A stretch of DNA of 64,000 nt from Magnetospiraceae bacterium (lineage in GTDB: Bacteria > Pseudomonadota > Alphaproteobacteria > Rhodospirillales > JBMYUJ01), in NCBI GenBank assembly GCA_049605255.1, contig JBMYUJ010000001.1:25486-89485 (forward strand), in the 5' to 3' direction. Shown here piece by piece: positions 33,352-42,620 of the stretch (its first letter is position 1; each line of letters opens with the position of its first letter). The notes beneath the pieces were generated by a model, which did not search any database, was not told where the DNA came from, and saw only the letters and a program-made list of their open reading frames with translations. Both the position numbers and the translations under genes were made by a program.

Positions 33352-33903
33352 ATGGCCCGTCGAAGCAGCCTTGAAACCCTACCGCCGAAGATCCTCGCCC
33401 AGGTCAATTTTCTGATCGGCGACGGGCGCTACACCATCGACGATGTGGTTGCCCATTTGCAGGAGATCGGCGAGCCCCGGTCCCGATCGGCGGTGGGGCG
33501 TCATGCAGCAAAAATCAATCTGGCGGCGGCGCGGCTGAAGGAATCCCGCGCGGTGACCGAAGCCCTGGTGACAGAGCTGGGGGATTCCGCCGCGCAAGGT
33601 AAGCAGGGGCGCCTCCTGGTGGAAATGGCGCGCTCCCTGGTGTTCGATGTGATGACGGCGCTGGAGCCCGGCGATATCAATGCCAAGGATGTGGCCAATC
33701 TCGGCAAGGGCCTCGCGGAGCTGGGCCGCGCGCTGCGCCTGGATCAGGACTTCGAAGAAAAGGTACGCACCCAGGTCGCCAAGGAAGAACGGGAAAAAGC
33801 GGCGGATACCGCCACCAAGGTGGCGCAGCAAAACGGCCTTTCTGCCGATACCGTGGCGGCCATCAAGGCGGAAATTCTCGGCATTCGCGTGGAACCATCA
33901 TGA
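33352..33903 (+). CDS. DUF3486 / Mu gp27 (terminase small subunit)
   Basis: RRSSLETLP, SRSAVGRH, GLS.DT...IKAEILGI. Confidence 0.85.
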   Translation: MARRSSLETLPPKILAQVNFLIGDGRYTIDDVVAHLQEIGEPRSRSAVGRHAAKINLAAARLKESRAVTEALVTELGDSAAQGKQGRLLVEMARSLVFDVMTALEPGDINAKDVANLGKGLAELGRALRLDQDFEEKVRTQVAKEEREKAADTATKVAQQNGLSADTVAAIKAEILGIRVEPS

Positions 33904-35510
33904 CCCCGGAAGCCGCCCAAGCCATCCCCGAATTCATGGTTTCCGGGGCGGTCGATATCCCGGATGTATTGCTGCCGTACCAACAGCAGCTCCTCGCCAC
34001 AACGGCAGTTAACCGGGTTACCGTTTGCGAGAAATCACGCCGCATCGGTGTTACCTGGGCTATTGGGGCCGATGCGGTGCTGACCTCCGCAGCCGCGCGA
34101 AATGCGGGCGGCATGGATACCATGTATATCGGCTATAACTTGGATATGGCGCGGGAGTTTATCGACACCTGTGCCATGTGGGCGAAGGCGTTCAATAAGG
34201 GTGCCTCGGCTGTCGAGGAATTCATTTTCAAGGATCGCCATAGGGACGGCGACAAGGATATCCAGGCCTTTCGGGTCTCGTTCGCGTCCGGGTTTGAGAT
34301 TGTCGCCCTCACCTCCAACCCGCGCTCTTTGCGTGGCCGCCAAGGCTACCTGATCTTCGACGAAGCCGCCTTCCATGATGACCTTGCAGGCATGCTGAAG
34401 GCTGCCATGGCATTCTTGATCTGGGGCGGTAAGCTGCTGGTGATCTCGACCCATGACGGGGAAGAAAATCCCTTCGCCGAGCTGGTCGATGATATCCGGT
34501 CTGGTCGCAAGCCATACGCCCTCGCCCGAACCACCTTTGATGACGCGGTCGCCGACGGGCTTTATGAGCGGGTCGCCATGATCCTGAAATCCCGCGGCGC
34601 AACCATCGAACCCAAAACCAAGTGGGTGGACGGCATCTATGCCTTCTATGGTGATGATTCCGACGAAGAGCTGCGGGTTATTCCCGCCTCCGGATCGGGG
34701 GCGTTCCTGACCCGGGCGTTAATTGAAGCGCGGATGCAGGACGGAATTCCAGTGCTGCGCTGGTCGGAAAAACCGGAATTCACCCATAAGCCGGATGCGG
34801 TTCGCACCACCGCCGCGCGGGATTGGTGGGAAGAAAACATCCTTCCCGAGATCACTAAAATCCATCCCCGCCTGCAGGTGGATTTCGGCATGGATTTTGG
34901 TCGGATCATCGACCTCTCGGTTTTCTGGCCGTTAGTACGGGAGCAAAACTTGGTGCGCCGCACCCCCTTCGTTATCGAAATGCGCGGCATTCCGTTTCAA
35001 CAACAAGAGCAGATTGTTACCTGGACGGTGGAGGCGCTGCCGCGCTTCGGCGCGGGGGCTATGGATGCGCGCGGCAACGGCCAATATCTGGCGGAACGTA
35101 TGCAGCAAAAATTTGGCGAAGATCGTGTCGAGGCGGTGATGCTTTCAGAAGGGTGGTACCGGGAGCAAATGCCCGCCTACAAAGCCGCCTTCGAAGACGG
35201 CAACATCATCCTGCCGAAGGATGCAGATATCCTGGATGATCACCGCGCTTTCAAGAAAATCCGGGGTGTCGCCCGCATCCCCGACCAACGCACCACAGGA
35301 GCCGATAAGGGGAAGCGCCATGGCGATTCCGGTATCGCCGGGGCCCTGGCGGACTATGCCTCGCGCAAAGACGTTCACCCCATTGGGTTCACCAGTTGCG
35401 GGGAGAGCCTTGCGGCGGCGGGCGCTTTTGGTGGCCGATCGGGCGGGGTGGATATGGAGCGCGGCTGGGGCCGGGTGCGCAGTGATCTTTCCGGCATGGG
35501 AGACTATTGA
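33900..35510 (+). CDS. terL: Terminase large subunit (Mu gp28-like)
   Basis: LLPYQ, EKSRRIGVT, LRGRQG.LIFDEAAFH, GMDFGR, HGD. Confidence 0.95.
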   Translation: MTPEAAQAIPEFMVSGAVDIPDVLLPYQQQLLATTAVNRVTVCEKSRRIGVTWAIGADAVLTSAAARNAGGMDTMYIGYNLDMAREFIDTCAMWAKAFNKGASAVEEFIFKDRHRDGDKDIQAFRVSFASGFEIVALTSNPRSLRGRQGYLIFDEAAFHDDLAGMLKAAMAFLIWGGKLLVISTHDGEENPFAELVDDIRSGRKPYALARTTFDDAVADGLYERVAMILKSRGATIEPKTKWVDGIYAFYGDDSDEELRVIPASGSGAFLTRALIEARMQDGIPVLRWSEKPEFTHKPDAVRTTAARDWWEENILPEITKIHPRLQVDFGMDFGRIIDLSVFWPLVREQNLVRRTPFVIEMRGIPFQQQEQIVTWTVEALPRFGAGAMDARGNGQYLAERMQQKFGEDRVEAVMLSEGWYREQMPAYKAAFEDGNIILPKDADILDDHRAFKKIRGVARIPDQRTTGADKGKRHGDSGIAGALADYASRKDVHPIGFTSCGESLAAAGAFGGRSGGVDMERGWGRVRSDLSGMGDY

Positions 35511-36982
35511 TGGCGAAGGCGAAAATCCGGTCAAAGACCGCGCCGATCTATGCGGAAATCGCCGCGAGCGGGTCGGATGCCGAGCGGTATCTGAACGCGT
35601 ATGTGCAAGAGATAGCCATCACCGAAGATCCGATTTTGAAAAGCCTGGGCGGTGATCTTTCGCATTATGAACGACTGCTCACCGACCCGCAGATTTTTAG
35701 CACTTTCCAGCAGCGGCGCCGTGCCGTGACCTCCACTGAATGGGAAGTGGAGCCCGGGGGCACCAGCCGCCAATCGAAAAAGGCAGCGGATTTCTTGCGG
35801 GAGAATCTGAGCGCCATCAAATGGGACCGGCACACGGACAAGATGCTGTATGGCCTGTTCTATGGTTTTGCCGTGGGCGAGATGATGTGGATGAACGATG
35901 GCGCCCATGTGGCCATCGACATGATCAAGGTGCGCAAGGCGAAGCGATTCCTATGGGGGGTGGATGGCGGATTGCGATTGCGCAAAAAAGGCCACCCCAA
36001 GGGCGTCGGCATGCCCGACCGAAAGTTTTGGACCTATACCGCCGGGGCGGACAATGACGACGAGCCCCATGGCATCGGCCTTGGCCATTACCTTTATTGG
36101 CCAGTCTGGTTTACCCGGAACGGCGCGAAGTTCTGGGCTTTGGCTCTGGAAAAGTTCGGCGGCCCCACCATGGTCGGCAAGCATCCCGCTGGGGCGACCG
36201 AGGAAATGGTCAAAACCCTGTTGCAGGCGGCCATGGCGGCGCGCACCGATGCGGCGGTCGCGATCCCCGAAGGCATGGCGTTGGAGGTTCTGGAATCCGC
36301 CCGGCGGGCGGGCGGCGATTTCCAGGAGTTTCTGCGTTATTGGGATGCGGCGAAATCCAAGATCATCGTGAGCCAGACCATGACCACGGATGATGGGTCC
36401 TCGCTGGCCCAAGGCCAGGTGCACATGGATGTGCGCCAGGACGTGGTGAAAGGCGATGCCGATCTACTGTGTGAAAGCTTCAACGAAGGCCCCGCCACCT
36501 GGTTGACGGAATGGAACTTCCCCGGTGCGGAACCGCCCCGGGTCTGGCGGATCACCGAAGAGCCCGAAGACCTGAACACCGCCGCTGATCGCGATCAAAA
36601 ACTTTATGCGATTGGCTGGGAGCCGTCAGGTGAGCGGGTGAAGGATACCTATGGCGACGGATACGAAAAACGCAAAACCGCAGCGCCCGACGCCGCTGAT
36701 GATGATGCCGACCCAAAAAAGGAAGATGACGCCAGCTTTGCTGAACCCACCGATGCCTTCGAACGGTTTATCGAAGAGATCAGCGATTCCGAAGCCATGG
36801 CCAAAACCATGGGCCCGGTGTTGGATCCCCTGATCGACCTGGTCAATGCCGCGCAATCCTACGAGGAGCTGACACAGAAACTTCCCAGCATCACCGGTGC
36901 CATGCAGGTGGATGACCTGGCCGAGTCCCTCGCCCGGGCGCTGTTCGCCGCCAATATCGCAGGCCGGGTGCAGGACGGCTAG
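35507..36982 (+). CDS. Portal protein (Mu gp29, DUF935)
   Basis: YGFAVGEMMW, LEKFGGP..VGK, SQTMTTDDGSS..QGQVH. Confidence 0.92.
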   Translation: MMAKAKIRSKTAPIYAEIAASGSDAERYLNAYVQEIAITEDPILKSLGGDLSHYERLLTDPQIFSTFQQRRRAVTSTEWEVEPGGTSRQSKKAADFLRENLSAIKWDRHTDKMLYGLFYGFAVGEMMWMNDGAHVAIDMIKVRKAKRFLWGVDGGLRLRKKGHPKGVGMPDRKFWTYTAGADNDDEPHGIGLGHYLYWPVWFTRNGAKFWALALEKFGGPTMVGKHPAGATEEMVKTLLQAAMAARTDAAVAIPEGMALEVLESARRAGGDFQEFLRYWDAAKSKIIVSQTMTTDDGSSLAQGQVHMDVRQDVVKGDADLLCESFNEGPATWLTEWNFPGAEPPRVWRITEEPEDLNTAADRDQKLYAIGWEPSGERVKDTYGDGYEKRKTAAPDAADDDADPKKEDDASFAEPTDAFERFIEEISDSEAMAKTMGPVLDPLIDLVNAAQSYEELTQKLPSITGAMQVDDLAESLARALFAANIAGRVQDG

Positions 36983-36984
36983 GC

Positions 36985-38280
36985 ATGGCCACGGTTTCCC
37001 CCTTCGGTTTGGAGCCGGAGGATTCGATCCAGTTCTTTCGGAAGAAGGGTTTCGCCCTCGGCTTTGATTGGCGGGATGTCTGGAAAAAAGAGCATGCCGT
37101 CGCCTTCACGGTCGCGAAAGCCATGCGCCTCGATATCCTGGAGGATATCCGCGCTGCCGTGGATGCGGCGATCAAGAACGGGATCACTTTTTCCGAGTTT
37201 CAAAAGGGCCTCGAACCCATTTTGAAAGCCAAGGGATGGTGGGGCAAAGGCATGGCCTTTGACCCCAAAACCAAAACCCTGAAGCGGGCGCAGCTCGGCT
37301 CCCCGCGGCGGCTTCGGGTGATCTATGATACGAACCTGCGCATGGCCCATGCGGCGGGCCGCTGGCAGCGCATCGCGGCGGTGGCCGACCGGCGGCCCTG
37401 GCTGGTCTATATCACGGCAGGCGATTCCCGGGTCCGCCCAGCCCACCGGCGGTGGCACTACGTCGTGCGGCGTTGGGATGACCCATTCTGGGATACCCAT
37501 TATCCACCGAACGGCTGGTTCTGCCGCTGCATCATCCTGCAGTTGTCTGATCGGGATTTGGCCCGCCTAGGGCTCACGGAATCACCACCGCCGGTGATCG
37601 ATCTCGAGCCCCGGCTCAACACCCGGCGCGGCAAGATGGATTTCGTGCCCCAAGGTATCGATACCGGGTTCGATTACAATGTGGGCAAGGCCCGCCTCAG
37701 GGCCTTCACCCCGCCGCCCGATGGCGGCCTGCCGACCTCGTTTCCGTCCGATATCCCGTTGCCGCCCTTGCCGCCCGCCCGGCCCGCGGCGGCGTCACGT
37801 CTCTTGCCAGACAATCTGCCGGACGAGGATTATATGGATGCGTTCCTGGCTGCGTTTGGCGCGGTCCGGGGCAAGCCGGTGATCTTTACCGATGTGGCGG
37901 GCGAAGACCTGGTGGTGAGTGAGGGGCTCTTCCACGAAAAGGATAAGGCCGGAAACTTGCTCTTTTCGAAGGTGAAGAAATTTGGCCGACACCCCTACAT
38001 GCGTCTGATCGCCGAAACCTTGAAAGACCCGGATGAAATCTGGTGGGTGTGGGAAGAAGATACAGATACCCCGGGCGTTTATCATTTGAAGCGCCGATTC
38101 ATCGGTCGCTGGCAACTTCCCAACCAGCAGGTGCCCGGTCTCGCGGTGTTCGAGCATCATCCGAGAACCGGCTGGCGGGCCGCGACGGCGTTCGCGCCAA
38201 ATGCCAGGAAATCTCTAAATAAGCAATCAAAGAGTCTGGAAAAGGTGCGGGGCGGCACCCTGGCCTATCGCCGAAAATAA
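36985..38280 (+). CDS. MuF minor head protein (gp30) with C-terminal PBECR2-type nuclease domain
   Basis: AFTVAK, RLRVIYDTN, DSRVRPAH, PPNGWFCRC; C-terminal IAETLKDPDEIW...RRFI...ATAF...GTLAYRR. Confidence 0.88.
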   Translation: MATVSPFGLEPEDSIQFFRKKGFALGFDWRDVWKKEHAVAFTVAKAMRLDILEDIRAAVDAAIKNGITFSEFQKGLEPILKAKGWWGKGMAFDPKTKTLKRAQLGSPRRLRVIYDTNLRMAHAAGRWQRIAAVADRRPWLVYITAGDSRVRPAHRRWHYVVRRWDDPFWDTHYPPNGWFCRCIILQLSDRDLARLGLTESPPPVIDLEPRLNTRRGKMDFVPQGIDTGFDYNVGKARLRAFTPPPDGGLPTSFPSDIPLPPLPPARPAAASRLLPDNLPDEDYMDAFLAAFGAVRGKPVIFTDVAGEDLVVSEGLFHEKDKAGNLLFSKVKKFGRHPYMRLIAETLKDPDEIWWVWEEDTDTPGVYHLKRRFIGRWQLPNQQVPGLAVFEHHPRTGWRAATAFAPNARKSLNKQSKSLEKVRGGTLAYRRK

Positions 38281-38359
38281 AAGGGGCCCAGGCGGCGGCG
38301 CCGTGAGCCCCGAAACCGATCGTGTGCTGCAGCATCGCCTGCGTGGCATCGGTTCCATT
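38274..38359 (-). ncRNA. Predicted ~85-nt structured sRNA convergent on MuF-PBECR2
   Basis: Between a TTGGAT-N17-TATAAT promoter and a minus-strand intrinsic terminator; two nested hairpins. Confidence 0.55.
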
Positions 38360-38365
38360 GATCCC

Positions 38366-38394
38366 ATTATACCCCCATCCCTCCCAGAATCCAA
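38366..38394 (-). promoter_or_regulatory. Sigma70-type antisense promoter
   Basis: TTGGAT (38394-38389), 17-nt spacer, TATAAT (38371-38366). Confidence 0.7.
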
Positions 38395-38553
38395 GCCGGG
38401 CGATTTTAAGGCCCGCTGAGCGCGATTCCGGTTCTGGGGTGCCGATCTACCTAAAAATCCTTAAACGCAAAATTAAACGGATTCCCGGGGCTCTCAGGGC
38501 CGTTTCCCGGGCGGGGGTCTGGCGCGCGTCCGTCTTCGCCGGACCGTCAGGGG

Positions 38554-38598
38554 TGATCAGGTGATCATGGCTACTCATGGGGGGGATATGGATACGTT
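38554..38598 (+). promoter_or_regulatory. Putative activator-dependent late promoter (head operon)
   Basis: TGATCAGGTGATCAtGGCTA-N19-TACGTT. Confidence 0.7.
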
Positions 38599-38638: not shown

Positions 38639-39697
38639 GTGAAGCCAATTCACTTTTTCAAGACCGGAAAACATACCAGCGCCGAAGGTGTCGAGATCAG
38701 CTTCGGTGAAAACGATCTGCGCCGGGCCGCCGAAGTCTACGACCCGTCGATCCACGAAGCGCCCATCGTTATTGGCCATCCGGTCGGCGACGCGCCCGCT
38801 TATGGCTGGGTCGGCGACGTTATGTTTGACGACGCCGGGCTGCACGCGACCCCAAAAGAGGTCGATGCCCAATTCGAGGAAATGGTAGCGGCTGGGAAGT
38901 TCAAAAAGGTTTCCGCTTCCTTCTACACCCCCGAGGCATCGGCCAACCCCGTGCCAGGGAGCCTCTATTTGCGCCATCTCGGATTTCTGGGGGCCCAACC
39001 GCCCGCCGTCAAAGGGCTAAAGCCCATCGAATTCTCCGGCGGCAATGAGGGGGTCGTGACCATTGAATTCGCGGATGATGCCGATCCCAGCCAAGAGAAT
39101 GCCGGGCTGGTCGTCCGAATGTTGCGCGATATCTGCAGCCTGCTTGCAGGTGATGTGAGCCCCACCTTTACCGAGCCCGCCGATGGCGGCACCCCCCCCG
39201 AACAAGAGGAGACCCCCGTGTCCGACCCTGACGACGCCGCCAAGAAGGCGGAGCTGGATACCCGCGAGGCCGATCTGGCAAAGCGGCAACAAGAACAGGA
39301 AGTCCGTGAAGCGGCTTTTGCCGAACGCCAGGCCGTGGCTGCCGCCCAAGCTGATCTTTCTGGTCTCGTGAAAACGGGCAAGGTTCTGCCTGCCGAGGTC
39401 GAAGGCCTCGCCTCCTTCATGGCGAAACTCGACGACAAGGAGGTTATTTCCTTCGCGGAAGGCGAGGACGGAAAGGCCACGCCCCGCGCCTTCTTCAAGG
39501 GCTTCCTCAATGGTCTGCCCAAGCGGGTGGACTATTCGGAGGTTGCCGCTCCAGACGGTGGGGATGGCGGCAAACCATCGCCGCAGGAAGTTGCCCGCAA
39601 GGCCCGGGATTATGTGTCTGACCAGCGGGCCAAGGGCAATGCGGTCAGCTATTCCGAGGCCGTCGCCCATGTGACCAAGGAAGGAGAGGCGCAATGA
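38639..39697 (+). CDS. Head protease/scaffold (Mu gpI/gpZ-like)
   Basis: EAPIVIGHP, PAYGWV, KKVSASFY, LRHLGFLGAQPPAVKGL. Confidence 0.9.
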   Translation: MKPIHFFKTGKHTSAEGVEISFGENDLRRAAEVYDPSIHEAPIVIGHPVGDAPAYGWVGDVMFDDAGLHATPKEVDAQFEEMVAAGKFKKVSASFYTPEASANPVPGSLYLRHLGFLGAQPPAVKGLKPIEFSGGNEGVVTIEFADDADPSQENAGLVVRMLRDICSLLAGDVSPTFTEPADGGTPPEQEETPVSDPDDAAKKAELDTREADLAKRQQEQEVREAAFAERQAVAAAQADLSGLVKTGKVLPAEVEGLASFMAKLDDKEVISFAEGEDGKATPRAFFKGFLNGLPKRVDYSEVAAPDGGDGGKPSPQEVARKARDYVSDQRAKGNAVSYSEAVAHVTKEGEAQ

Positions 39698-42137: not shown

Positions 42138-42620
42138 ATGCCCACCTCCATCAAAATCGACGATACGGAAGTGCGCGGCGCGCTCGGTAAAATGATCGCC
42201 GGGGCGGGTGACCTTTCGGCGCCCATGAGAGAGGTCGCGAGTTATGGCGAAACCTCCACGCGCGAACGGTTTTTGACCAATATCGGCCCCGATGGCAAAG
42301 CCTGGGTGCCGTCCCACCGGGCCAGGGCCACCGGTGGGAAGACGTTGTTTCAGCATGGCCATTTGCAGGATTCCCTCCATAGCCGGTCAGGCCGGGATTT
42401 CGCCGAATGGGGCACCAACAAGATTTACGCCCGGGTGCATCAATTCGGCGCGATCATCCGCGCGAAAGCGGGTGGGTTCCTGCATTTCAAGGGTAGTAAA
42501 GGCTGGGCGAAAGTGCGCAGCGTGACTTTGCCCGCGCGCCCGTTCCTCGGCCTTTCAGCCGTCGATAAGGAAGAGATCGATTTCATCTTTACCGATTACC
42601 TGCGGGGGCTCGCCCGATGA
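42138..42620 (+). CDS. Virion morphogenesis protein (Mu gpG-like)
   Basis: PDGKAW.P, GTNKIYARVHQFG, LPARPFLGLS. Confidence 0.9.
   Translation: MPTSIKIDDTEVRGALGKMIAGAGDLSAPMREVASYGETSTRERFLTNIGPDGKAWVPSHRARATGGKTLFQHGHLQDSLHSRSGRDFAEWGTNKIYARVHQFGAIIRAKAGGFLHFKGSKGWAKVRSVTLPARPFLGLSAVDKEEIDFIFTDYLRGLAR

Follow-up and report, generated by a model that had tools for sequence, protein, structure and literature searches.

In the type I toxin-antitoxin pairs TxpA/RatA and BsrG/SR4, the antisense RNA is convergent with the toxin gene and overlaps it at the 3' end. Phage lambda makes OOP, a short RNA transcribed convergently from a promoter of its own and terminated within the 3' part of the gene upstream. 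A small ORF that could encode immunity reportedly follows 89.4% of 191 MuF toxin genes. ToxI-type antitoxins, in the literature excerpts consulted, form tandem repeats ahead of the toxin gene, share its transcript, and are cut by the toxin itself. For AvcI/AvcD, the consulted part of PMC10511110 describes one sRNA that binds to an enzyme toxin and inhibits it. The C-terminal domain of proteobacterial Mu-type F proteins was named PBECR in Iyer 2017, where the relevant section predicts an RNase or an RNA binder. In the BECR core given there, four or five strands come after a helix; a His (or Arg) is located at this helix and a Thr or Ser C-terminally. RNase activity and toxicity of PBECR2 are predictions in the pertinent passages of Iyer 2017 and Jamet 2017 (PMC5576092). 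Whether Ct_MAD, the C-terminal extension of proteobacterial proteins, acts as a toxin is left undecided in the latter passage. We take Ct_MAD as a candidate equivalent, roughly, of PBECR2. How cells tolerate the C-terminal domain of proteobacterial Mu-type F proteins is a question left by these portions of both papers.

In this study, the window is the whole 64,000-nucleotide stretch of Magnetospiraceae DNA that was analysed. It carries a prophage whose relevant features are listed in Table 1. The locus is best explained as a two-gene module, in which the F head protein gene is joined, on the opposite strand, by a predicted sRNA gene that is autonomous and about 85 nt long.

Table 1. Features of the F locus and its surroundings, in window coordinates
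Feature	Position	Strand	Basis
Mu-type F gene, minor head / DNA pilot protein, 431 aa, MuF + C-terminal PBECR2	36985..38280	+	ORF list, Pfam, PHROG
PBECR2 domain, aa 286-429, with putative catalytic R60 and T126 (domain alignment numbering)	37840..38271	+	Pfam, alignments, AF2
Predicted sRNA transcript, ~85 nt	38274..38359	-	start inferred from -10 box, end from U-tract
Terminator U-tract TTTTATTTT over last Lys codon and stop codon of F gene	38274..38282	-	sequence
Terminator hairpin with inner 4-bp hairpin	38283..38311	-	fold; detector -21.5 kcal/mol
Hairpin H1: 8-bp outer stem, 3 further pairs, inner hairpin P2, 3' internal loop	38312..38356	-	fold
Inner hairpin P2 of H1, loop GCGAUG	38329-38342	-	fold
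-10 hexamer TATAAT of sRNA promoter	38366..38371	-	sequence; 1 of 6 TATAAT in window
-35 hexamer TTGGAT of sRNA promoter	38389..38394	-	sequence, pattern count
Best-conserved part of 157-nt stretch (about 38369-38522), 77% identical to C11 relic	38405..38490	.	nhmmer/blastn, alignment
Head maturation protease, next gene	38639..39697	+	PHROG 976 at 1.8e-91
G-like virion morphogenesis gene	42156..42602 (C1:67641-68087)	+	PF05069 at 2.2e-27

The F protein matched Phage_Mu_F of Pfam (1.2e-20) and PHROG 220 (6.1e-97). Its C-terminus matched PBECR2 (PF18810) at 100.9 bits against a curated cut-off of 27.1 (E 6.9e-29, aa 286-429). By Pfam, the protein is thus built like a MuF polymorphic toxin, with a MuF N-terminal domain and a variable C-terminal effector. 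The AF2 model of the domain (pLDDT 85) showed a helix (61-72) and then strands 76-83, 91-101, 110-117, and 121-128. R60 precedes the helix and T126 lies in the last strand; both are putative catalytic positions, assigned by analogy with one statement in the consulted section of Iyer 2017. A Foldseek search of the domain model against the PDB gave 0 matches at E <= 0.001. The domain is predicted to be a metal-independent RNase.

The sequence-only reading had placed a promoter, a two-hairpin RNA, and a terminator convergent with F at the MuF stop codon, and this arrangement was borne out by the sequence and by the minus-strand fold. The promoter is of the sigma-70 type (TTGGAT-N17-TATAAT, 38394-38366, minus strand), and the F stop codon TAA (38278-38280) lies under the U-tract of the sRNA terminator. 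TATAAT occurs six times in the 64-kb window, both strands together, and the pattern TTGNNN-N16-18-TATAAT was observed 4 times, against 0.41 +/- 0.59 expected. A simple promoter and terminator scan, which demanded at least 4/6 matches to the -35 hexamer and loop lengths of 3-8 nt, flagged neither site. The minus-strand fold (38362->38268) had a dG of -41.0 and a z of -2.19, with 6/200 shuffles as stable. It consists of an outer stem around a GCAG/CUGC hairpin, then the terminator with its inner hairpin. For the plus strand of the sRNA region, z was -0.31 and 67/200 shuffles folded as well. One U-G wobble in the terminator hairpin of the sRNA becomes a C-A mismatch on the plus strand, and no T-run follows the hairpin there, as expected from the earlier claim that the U-tract is confined to the minus strand. 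The signals of the sRNA gene are strand-specific. ARAGORN gave no tRNA-like or tmRNA-like match in 13 loci, and such a nature of the RNA was rejected on this result.

The minus strand might instead encode a small protein, since a leaderless 43-codon frame from ATG 38358 and a 55-codon frame from a TTG are both open. However, the ATG reads AAG in the C7 paralogue of the same genome, and the 43-codon frame passes through the terminator into antisense F. The minus-strand frames had no Pfam match. In alignments of a sister RNA class, termed class C, 1- and 2-nt indels occur while the pairs covary, which argues against coding. A protein gene on this strand is hardly credible, and the leaderless ORF formerly kept as an alternative was rejected.

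The earlier statement that F has no convincing co-oriented immunity ORF held. The sole candidate for a small immunity ORF directly after F is a co-oriented 80-aa ORF (38322-38564). It overlaps the sRNA gene, has no Pfam or PHROG match, and its span holds a 1-nt indel relative to the C11 paralogue. Farther downstream, the best-conserved part of the 157-nt stretch has two TTAAACG repeats and an AATCC/GGATT dyad, and it is possibly the late promoter region of the protease operon. In the window prophage the G-like gene is not adjacent to F but 3.9 kb away.

The relatives of the window clade were surveyed for the same layout. A terminator at the stop was found on the minus strand in 61/92 loci and on the plus strand in 1/92, and after removal of near-duplicates in 40/67 and 1/67, respectively; kin are not independent, so the counts overstate the significance. 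Among the near-consensus -10 hexamers of the deduplicated relatives, 26/32 sit 70-89 nt upstream of the U-tract. The prediction that a convergent -10 box and terminator follow PBECR2-MuF homologues was therefore confirmed in this set. As a control, the stop of the next ORF had a terminator in 6/52 loci. A chance origin of the signals was discarded on the clustering of the -10 boxes in homologues, the result at control stops, and the excess of the promoter pattern.

An unbiased sample of 401 Pseudomonadota genomes was also searched. A convergent, terminator-closed structured RNA was present at the stop codon of 26/27 assessable PBECR2 genes, and the permissive detector also fired on the plus strand at 7/27 loci. 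The PBECR2 gene without the unit was L157. Genes ending in PBECR3 carried the convergent unit at the stop codon in 8/10 cases of the same sample. The RNA-bearing PBECR2 proteins were solo, MuF-fused, or portal-MuF-fused. Both annotated F-G gaps that were inspected, of 92 nt in RcapMu and 103 nt in RR1-B, hold the RNA unit and have no recorded feature. These results show that RNA genes of several structural classes stand at PBECR2 and PBECR3 stop codons in many phages, whatever the N-terminal architecture.

Covarying stems had been predicted as well, and they were found in two RNA classes. Between the window RNA and its C7 paralogue, 5/27 pairs changed on both sides, including three outer-stem pairs and one P2 pair, and 94.4% of the cells were paired, compared with 31-50% in slid controls. 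In class C, 16/34 pairs changed on both sides with 93% of the cells paired, and 0/500 shuffles matched this. The G-U pairs of class C favour the RNA-gene strand. Its invariant unpaired stretches and three-way junction recur across several genera, at 69% mean column identity. The C7 and C11 relics have lost the promoter and/or the U-tract and thus show no sign of selection as orphan immunity.

The RNA class of the window comprises 54 families beyond BLAST alignment, which indicates rapid sequence turnover. The RNA classes could not be aligned with MAFFT. A covariance model of five gamma-type RNAs (R1) gave 7 true matches in 89 sources, all in its own subgroup, and missed the window RNA. A second model, built from the window and C7 RNAs (R2), matched 10/11 non-seed loci at the PBECR stop on the expected strand, all marginally (E 2e-4 to 0.5). 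Over 150 genomes of the order, R2 returned false positives only, and of the 8 matches outside its own genome, 0/7 examined adjoin a PBECR ORF. Because the classes cannot be joined in one covariance model, a common ancestry of all of them would be conjecture. Against Rfam 15, the best match of the window RNA was BjrC68 (RF02353), with 16.7 bits against a gathering score of 39, so the RNA is not a member. Like BjrC68, it is a two-hairpin sRNA with a terminator and aligns over the whole model, but the score is terminator-driven. Rfam scans of 20 + 14 + 20 homologous loci at E <= 1 gave no match on the RNA regions. The RNA was undescribed in the literature searched, though supplementary tables such as the sRNA lists of R. 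capsulatus might list the RcapMu RNA.

The RNA unit goes with the PBECR domain, not with MuF or the gene downstream, and this link is stronger than the sequence alone could tell. The gene after the unit varies and may be the G-like gene, the protease, or another. Nine F genes lack PBECR or have altered R/H and T positions (BcepMu, Vibrio 1.142.O, D3112, Mu, JBD25, L111, L062, L026, and L028). The unit was found in 0/9 of them by the strict rule and in 1/9 by the permissive rule. By the strict rule, it is missing where the domain is absent or the putative catalytic residues are replaced, as had been predicted for nuclease-less MuF genes. For example, L052 has kept R and T and has the RNA, with a 98-nt gap; in L062, which is related to it, the residues are L and S, the gap is 55 nt, and the RNA is absent. 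L048, L051, and L064 have PBECR2 with R and T kept, yet the unit was absent by eye; the permissive rule gave no match in L048 and L051 and a match of -15.4 kcal/mol in L064. L005-L007 are F genes that bear RNA units. The comparison of the C-termini of L005, L006, L007, and D3112 with the PBECR2 alignment by hhalign was not significant. The N-terminal halves of L005 and L006 are 55% identical, and their C-termini are unrelated.

The region from F to the protease in Mu-like phages holds accessory genes, such as the anti-CRISPR loci of Pseudomonas Mu-like phages. The unit could accordingly be an independent accessory element at a head-module hot spot, either a host-directed sRNA or a promoter-terminator insulator of the late operon, with no tie to the nuclease. 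The great differences among the RNA classes and the ordinary host type of the promoter would suit this. However, the unit keeps its place at the PBECR stop codon whatever gene comes next, it accompanies solo and fused PBECR genes alike, and by the strict rule it is absent from all nine F genes without an intact domain. We therefore consider an independent element quite improbable.

We tentatively favour the view that the RNA is an antidote of the PBECR RNase and acts by direct binding, which may be true but has a somewhat less than even chance. The sRNA would be made from a prophage promoter and fold into its class-specific shape. It would then bind the PBECR domain and inhibit it, as a type III antitoxin does. 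In this way, the lysogen and the producing cell may be shielded from a nuclease that would otherwise travel inside the virion and enter along with the DNA. The tight overlap at the stop codon would keep the domain and the RNA together through cassette recombination. A counterpoint to direct binding is that the sRNA would match the late polycistronic mRNA with perfect complementarity, and antisense action could follow from this without any further assumption.

Antisense action, as an antidote or a regulator, would resemble type I toxin-antitoxin pairs or lambda OOP, with the RNA pairing with the late mRNA where the PBECR gene ends. Such pairing would lead to duplex cleavage and decay of the F message; the nuclease would be silent in lysogens, or the ratio of F to downstream products would be set during lytic growth. 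The sequence-only reading had proposed an RNA antitoxin, an idea now partly supported, and had taken the minimal overlap as evidence against antisense silencing. Its comparative prediction stood, with the convergent -10 box, terminator, covariation, and linkage to the nuclease, but its argument from overlap is weak, because the late operon mRNA presumably crosses the whole region and the RNA is fully complementary to any such read-through transcript. The layout is convergent, and the U-tract, sometimes with the hairpin, lies within the last ORF codons. Co-occurrence with intact catalytic positions suits any antidote, antisense included, and the rapid turnover into 54 families that BLAST cannot align would be tolerated by a self-complementary pair. 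A precedent is RalR/RalA, an sRNA antitoxin for a prophage nuclease toxin, cited in the consulted part of Jamet 2017 (PMC5576092). On the other side, pure pairing does not require the invariant unpaired stretches and the three-way junction of class C, and, at the loci inspected by eye, the RNA leaves the ribosome-binding site of the next gene uncovered. Duplex scans at the F start region revealed no conserved second target: there was no common position, and the best duplex energy in the window was -64.8, against -58.1 +/- 3.7 for shuffled RNA. Overall, antisense action is a serious candidate, though a rather unlikely one.

The RNA could also be a substrate, a cofactor, or a packaged partner of the PBECR domain rather than its inhibitor, forming a ribonucleoprotein that serves in head assembly, DNA piloting, or counter-defence. 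An RNA-binding role of the MuF C-terminal domain is predicted in the section of Iyer 2017 consulted, the association with PBECR2 and PBECR3 is independent of architecture, and the RNAs are structured and class-specific. However, Mu, JBD25, and D3112 keep the C-terminal domain and form virions without such an RNA gene, so the RNA is not needed for a structural role, and it tracks the putative catalytic residues instead. We believe that this role is unlikely. If the reading as a protein-binding antidote is extended to all these loci, C-terminal RNase domains of the PBECR2 and PBECR3 type in phage virion proteins would as a rule be paired with a cognate structured RNA, convergent over their stop codon, that acts as a protein-binding antitoxin. 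We hold this broader rule as possible, and with some reserve.

A conserved RNA gene locked to the PBECR domain offers a concrete partner for a domain whose role is left open in the consulted parts of Iyer 2017 and Jamet 2017. RcapMu of Rhodobacter capsulatus and RR1-B of Rhizobium are cultured phages with such units. Should the RNA prove to be an inhibitor, RNA-antitoxin biology would extend to BECR nucleases and virion-delivered effectors, and the missing immunity gene would be explained. If the general antitoxin rule is true, these loci would form a large class of protein-RNA toxin/immunity modules that has gone unrecognised, with RNA in the role that proteins play in polymorphic-toxin immunity. 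Such pairs would diversify jointly as exchangeable cassettes and would decide which lysogens survive nuclease delivery by related phages. Whatever the function, several well-supported structured RNA families are new to Rfam, and they represent a common blind spot of phage annotation.

Compared with known systems, the sRNA is short and convergent like lambda OOP, and both use a promoter of their own and terminate inside the 3' part of the gene upstream. Unlike the sRNA, OOP overlaps the regulatory gene cII by tens of nt and has no conserved association with a nuclease domain. As in the type I pair RalR/RalA of the rac prophage, a small prophage RNA with a constitutive promoter is convergent with the gene of the toxin, here a candidate toxin, and overlaps the 3' end of its message. 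RalR is a nuclease, not a membrane peptide, according to a title cited in PMC5576092. Like a type I antitoxin, the RNA is complementary to the mRNA of the candidate toxin, as it lies on the opposite strand with its U-tract over the stop and the last Lys codon. In contrast, type I toxins are usually small hydrophobic peptides, whereas here the toxin would be the C-terminal domain of a 431-aa structural protein within an operon; the ORF overlap is only about 7-25 nt, and the RNAs have conserved multi-helix structures.

The locus as proposed resembles the type III systems (ToxIN, CptIN, TenpIN, and AvcID) in that a toxin acting on nucleic acids or nucleotides is checked by a structured RNA, and these systems are also phage-related. 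Unlike in type III, the RNA gene here occurs once, lies convergently downstream, and carries a promoter and a terminator of its own, without tandem repeats; the two RNA copies at L015 and L039 are complete units rather than short repeats. The protein belongs to the virion, has a BECR-type domain, and is neither a ToxN-like toxin nor a deaminase, and binding is only proposed. Compared with MuF polymorphic toxins with protein immunity, no conserved ORF comes next, and an RNA gene on the other strand is found instead. In common with those toxins, as described in the part of PMC5576092 consulted, the locus has a MuF N-terminus, a variable C-terminal effector, and a putative protective factor immediately downstream, in temperate phages. 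The likeness extends to displaced C-terminal tips with a second putative protective gene, as seen at L015, where a remnant PBECR2 C-terminal tip and a second intact RNA gene lie downstream of the resident pair.

The genes and RNA signals of the window locus are listed in the table. ORF, Pfam and PHROG searches identified this region as a Mu-like prophage's head module, in which the Mu-type head protein gene (MuF, the F gene) ends in a predicted RNase domain, PBECR2.

Genes and minus-strand RNA signals around the F gene in the window
Feature	Position	Strand	Remark
Large terminase	33900-35510		Mu-like prophage head module
Mu-type portal	35507-36982		Mu-like prophage head module
F gene	36985-38280		Phage_Mu_F 1.2e-20; C-terminal PBECR2 6.9e-29, aa 286-429 (Pfam)
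U-tract run TTTTATTTT	38282-38274	minus	overlies the F stop codon
GC-rich second hairpin	38311-38283	minus	29 nt
First hairpin	38356-38312	minus	45 nt, enclosing a 4-bp inner hairpin
-10 TATAAT	38371-38366	minus	read from sequence
-35 TTGGAT	38394-38389	minus	read from sequence; 17-nt spacer to -10
Gap between F gene and protease			358 nt
Head maturation protease	38639-39697		Mu-like prophage head module
Scaffold or decoration protein, then major head protein	after protease

The sequence-only reading had placed a promoter and a two-hairpin terminator unit on the minus strand after the F gene, and this unit held up. The fold on the minus strand was -41.0 kcal/mol with z = -2.19, compared with z = -0.31 on the plus strand, and two wobble pairs of the minus strand become A-C mismatches if the plus strand is read. 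TATAAT occurred six times in the 64-kb window, and the pattern TTGNNN-N16-18-TATAAT was found 4 times against 0.41 expected. Because of the strand-biased fold, the rarity of TATAAT and the excess of the promoter pattern over expectation, we considered the unit real. A simple promoter and terminator scan did not report these sites, solely owing to its stricter rules. Only three other sites in the window had the promoter pattern (13956 minus, 14127 plus and 16643 minus). Two of them face each other within about 170 nt and may mark the prophage's regulatory region.

Loci with relatives of the window's F protein were taken from species genomes (19), IMG/VR (80, the best of 107) and metagenomes (17); the IMG/VR set was found by the KDPDEIW motif pattern and is therefore biased to the window's clade. 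By eye, nearly all relatives showed the unit on the minus strand: a -10-like hexamer precedes a long hairpin, which encloses an inner hairpin and a longer 3' internal loop, and then a terminator that has its U-tract within the final codons of F. A strict rule (hairpin ≤47 nt, dG ≤ -8, T-rich run starting -32 to +25 of the stop) found a terminator on the minus strand at 61 of 92 loci and on the plus strand at 1 of 92; like the other counts given here, these are over related sequences and overstate independence. At 90% identity the 92 loci collapse into 67 clusters, and BLAST leaves them in 54 unconnected groups; by cluster, the minus-strand terminator was present in 40/67 and the plus-strand one in 1/67. 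Many of the 27 clusters failing the rule keep hairpins with poor U-tracts, as judged by eye. Near-consensus -10 hexamers sat 70-89 nt upstream of the U-tract in 26 of 32 cases. As a control, the strict rule was applied to the stop codon of the ORF that follows, and gave 6/52. In phages RcapMu and RR1-B the RNA lies in the F-G gap (L131:1969-2060, 92 nt, and L132:1927-2029, 103 nt, respectively), which is unannotated in both published records. In three RNA classes (loci L140-L142, L145, L146, L149, L152, L158, L160 and L161), a TATCCT hexamer, often after TG or GG, also recurred some 75-111 nt upstream of the U-tract. It reads AGGATA on the opposite strand, which may double as the G gene's ribosome-binding site and so overlap with the promoter.

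PBECR2 was surveyed across 401 evenly sampled Pseudomonadota genomes. The domain was present in 30 genomes, giving 29 new loci, 27 of which had enough downstream sequence to assess. The proteins were MuF-PBECR2 (420-470 aa), solo PBECR2 (175-303 aa) and portal-MuF-PBECR2 fusions. Under a permissive rule (any structure ≤129 nt with ≥4 closing pairs ahead of a T-run), a convergent terminator-closed structure lay at the stop in 26/27; the exception among the sampled loci was L157. This rule is noisy, as it also fired on the plus strand in 7/27, where a short-hairpin rule gave 1/27. PBECR3, another predicted RNase domain, was found in 11 of the 401 genomes. Nine C-terminal cases and Mannheimia phage vB_MhM_3927AP2 (MuF-PBECR3, 2.7e-12) were examined; 8/10 had the unit and 0/10 had it on the plus strand. 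The gene after the RNA is a G-like gene, the protease (in the window) or another small ORF. The window's G-like virion morphogenesis gene lies at 42156-42602, behind a head-tail adaptor gene and not directly after F, unlike the order in Mu, RcapMu and most loci examined. This variable downstream gene and the distant G homologue indicate that the RNA follows the PBECR end, not G.

The sequence-only reading had called for a control with nuclease-less MuF genes, and its expectation was borne out. In nine F genes without PBECR or with a degenerate one (BcepMu, 278 aa; Vibrio phage 1.142.O, 264 aa; D3112; L026; L028; Mu; JBD25; L111; L062), the unit was found in 0/9 by the strict rule and 1/9 by the permissive rule. 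At the R and T positions taken as catalytic (R60 and T126 of the domain alignment), JBD25 has S and A, L111 V and N, and L062 L and S. These positions were assigned from one sentence of Iyer 2017 and the model topology. F and G abut or overlap in Mu, JBD25, D3112 and BcepMu. L052 and L062 have a C-terminal heptapeptide in common and similar starts of the downstream gene; L052 keeps R and T and has a 98-nt gap with the RNA, and L062 has a 55-nt gap with neither -10 box nor hairpins. L048, L051 and L064 keep R and T and had no unit by eye; the permissive rule gave a match of -15.4 kcal/mol in L064. In L005, L006 and L007, from the window's order, convergent RNA-like units follow unfamiliar C-terminal domains. 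The N-terminal halves of these F proteins are 45-55% identical to the window's, and their unrelated C-terminal domains, recognised by neither Pfam nor hhalign, may be unrecognised PBECR-like nucleases. The results showed a strand-specific, putative small transcription unit of conserved structure, linked near-constantly to PBECR2 and PBECR3 ends and absent from genes that lack the domain or its putative catalytic residues. An unrelated accessory element matches this co-occurrence poorly, and we consider it unlikely. The RNA could instead serve the PBECR domain as cofactor or substrate, which is improbable, as Mu, JBD25 and D3112 manage without it.

The RNAs fall into several classes. In the window's class, which includes RcapMu and RR1-B, a hairpin is followed by a separate terminator; the remaining classes are multi-helix RNAs whose closing stem also serves as terminator. 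Nine class C RNAs aligned well, and RNAalifold gave 34 pairs with a three-way junction. Of these pairs, 16 are changed on both sides and several are G-U on the RNA strand; 93% of cells pair, compared with 82% in shuffles (0/500 attain the observed values) and 33-50% with partners slid. No RNA matched an Rfam 15 family, and ARAGORN found none tRNA-like. A model from the window RNA and its copy on contig C7 placed the RNA at the expected site and strand in 10/11 other loci, RcapMu and RR1-B among them, with marginal E-values; it was useless at genome-wide scale. Matches of model R1, built from five gamma-type RNAs, were confined to their own subgroup. The models therefore do not establish a single origin of all classes. 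Six PBECR3 RNAs (L169, L170, L171, L173, L175 and L176) have a common short motif of type UUCGGACGUU within an inner hairpin and differ in their closing stems. L172 has a stem-loop akin to a tRNA T-arm, where ARAGORN calls nothing.

Two diverged copies of the gap occur at other places in the genome, neither inside a recognisable prophage. At C11:6724-7227, adjoining an ordinary host gene, the C-terminal 95 codons of a PBECR2 domain (48% identical) are followed by the RNA region and another ~150 bases; C7:387-580 holds the RNA region only. C7 has neither -10 box nor U-tract, and C11 has a decayed first hairpin. Both are relics that have lost the promoter and/or U-tract. The fold is retained in C7, where both sides of 5/27 pairs are changed relative to the window and, with the window, 94.4% of cells pair compared with 31-50% with partners slid. 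The C11 relic (C11:7067-7222) shares 77% identity with a 157-nt stretch of the window (~38369-38522). Within this stretch, conservation is highest over 38405-38490, an AT-rich segment of the plus strand that separates the small RNA promoter from the protease gene and contains an AATCC/GGATT dyad and two TTAAACG repeats spaced by 12 nt. This segment may serve the protease operon as late promoter or activator site, which would make it the analogue of Mu P_I.

The tie to the putative catalytic residues suggests that the enzyme's activity is the reason for the RNA's existence, and an antidote to the predicted PBECR RNase fits this best. RNase activity and toxicity of PBECR2 are given as predictions in the relevant passage of Iyer 2017, and the pertinent text of Jamet 2017 (PMC5576092) leaves open the toxin nature of the Ct_MAD extension. 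Foldseek found no solved relative of the PBECR2 domain model. Antisense action on the late mRNA, the less probable of two modes considered, needs no additional assumption. For three reasons we tentatively favour an RNA antidote that would bind the PBECR domain directly. Class C keeps its unpaired nucleotides and junction across genera, the RNA classes track PBECR subfamilies, and inhibition of an enzyme toxin by a single small RNA has a precedent in AvcI/AvcD, as outlined in PMC10511110.

Two loci point to cassette-like behaviour. In L015:4248-4600, a remnant of about 15 codons from the C-terminus of a different PBECR2 lies downstream of the resident F gene and its RNA, and behind it comes a further intact RNA gene, which belongs to another subtype and has its own promoter. 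L039:1947-2112 carries two tandem RNA copies (80.9 and 75.3 bits with R1), and the F reading frame extends into the first of them by 54 nt. The arrangements are reminiscent of polymorphic toxin loci, with their displaced toxin tips and orphan immunity genes, and could also have arisen when related phages recombined in the ordinary way.
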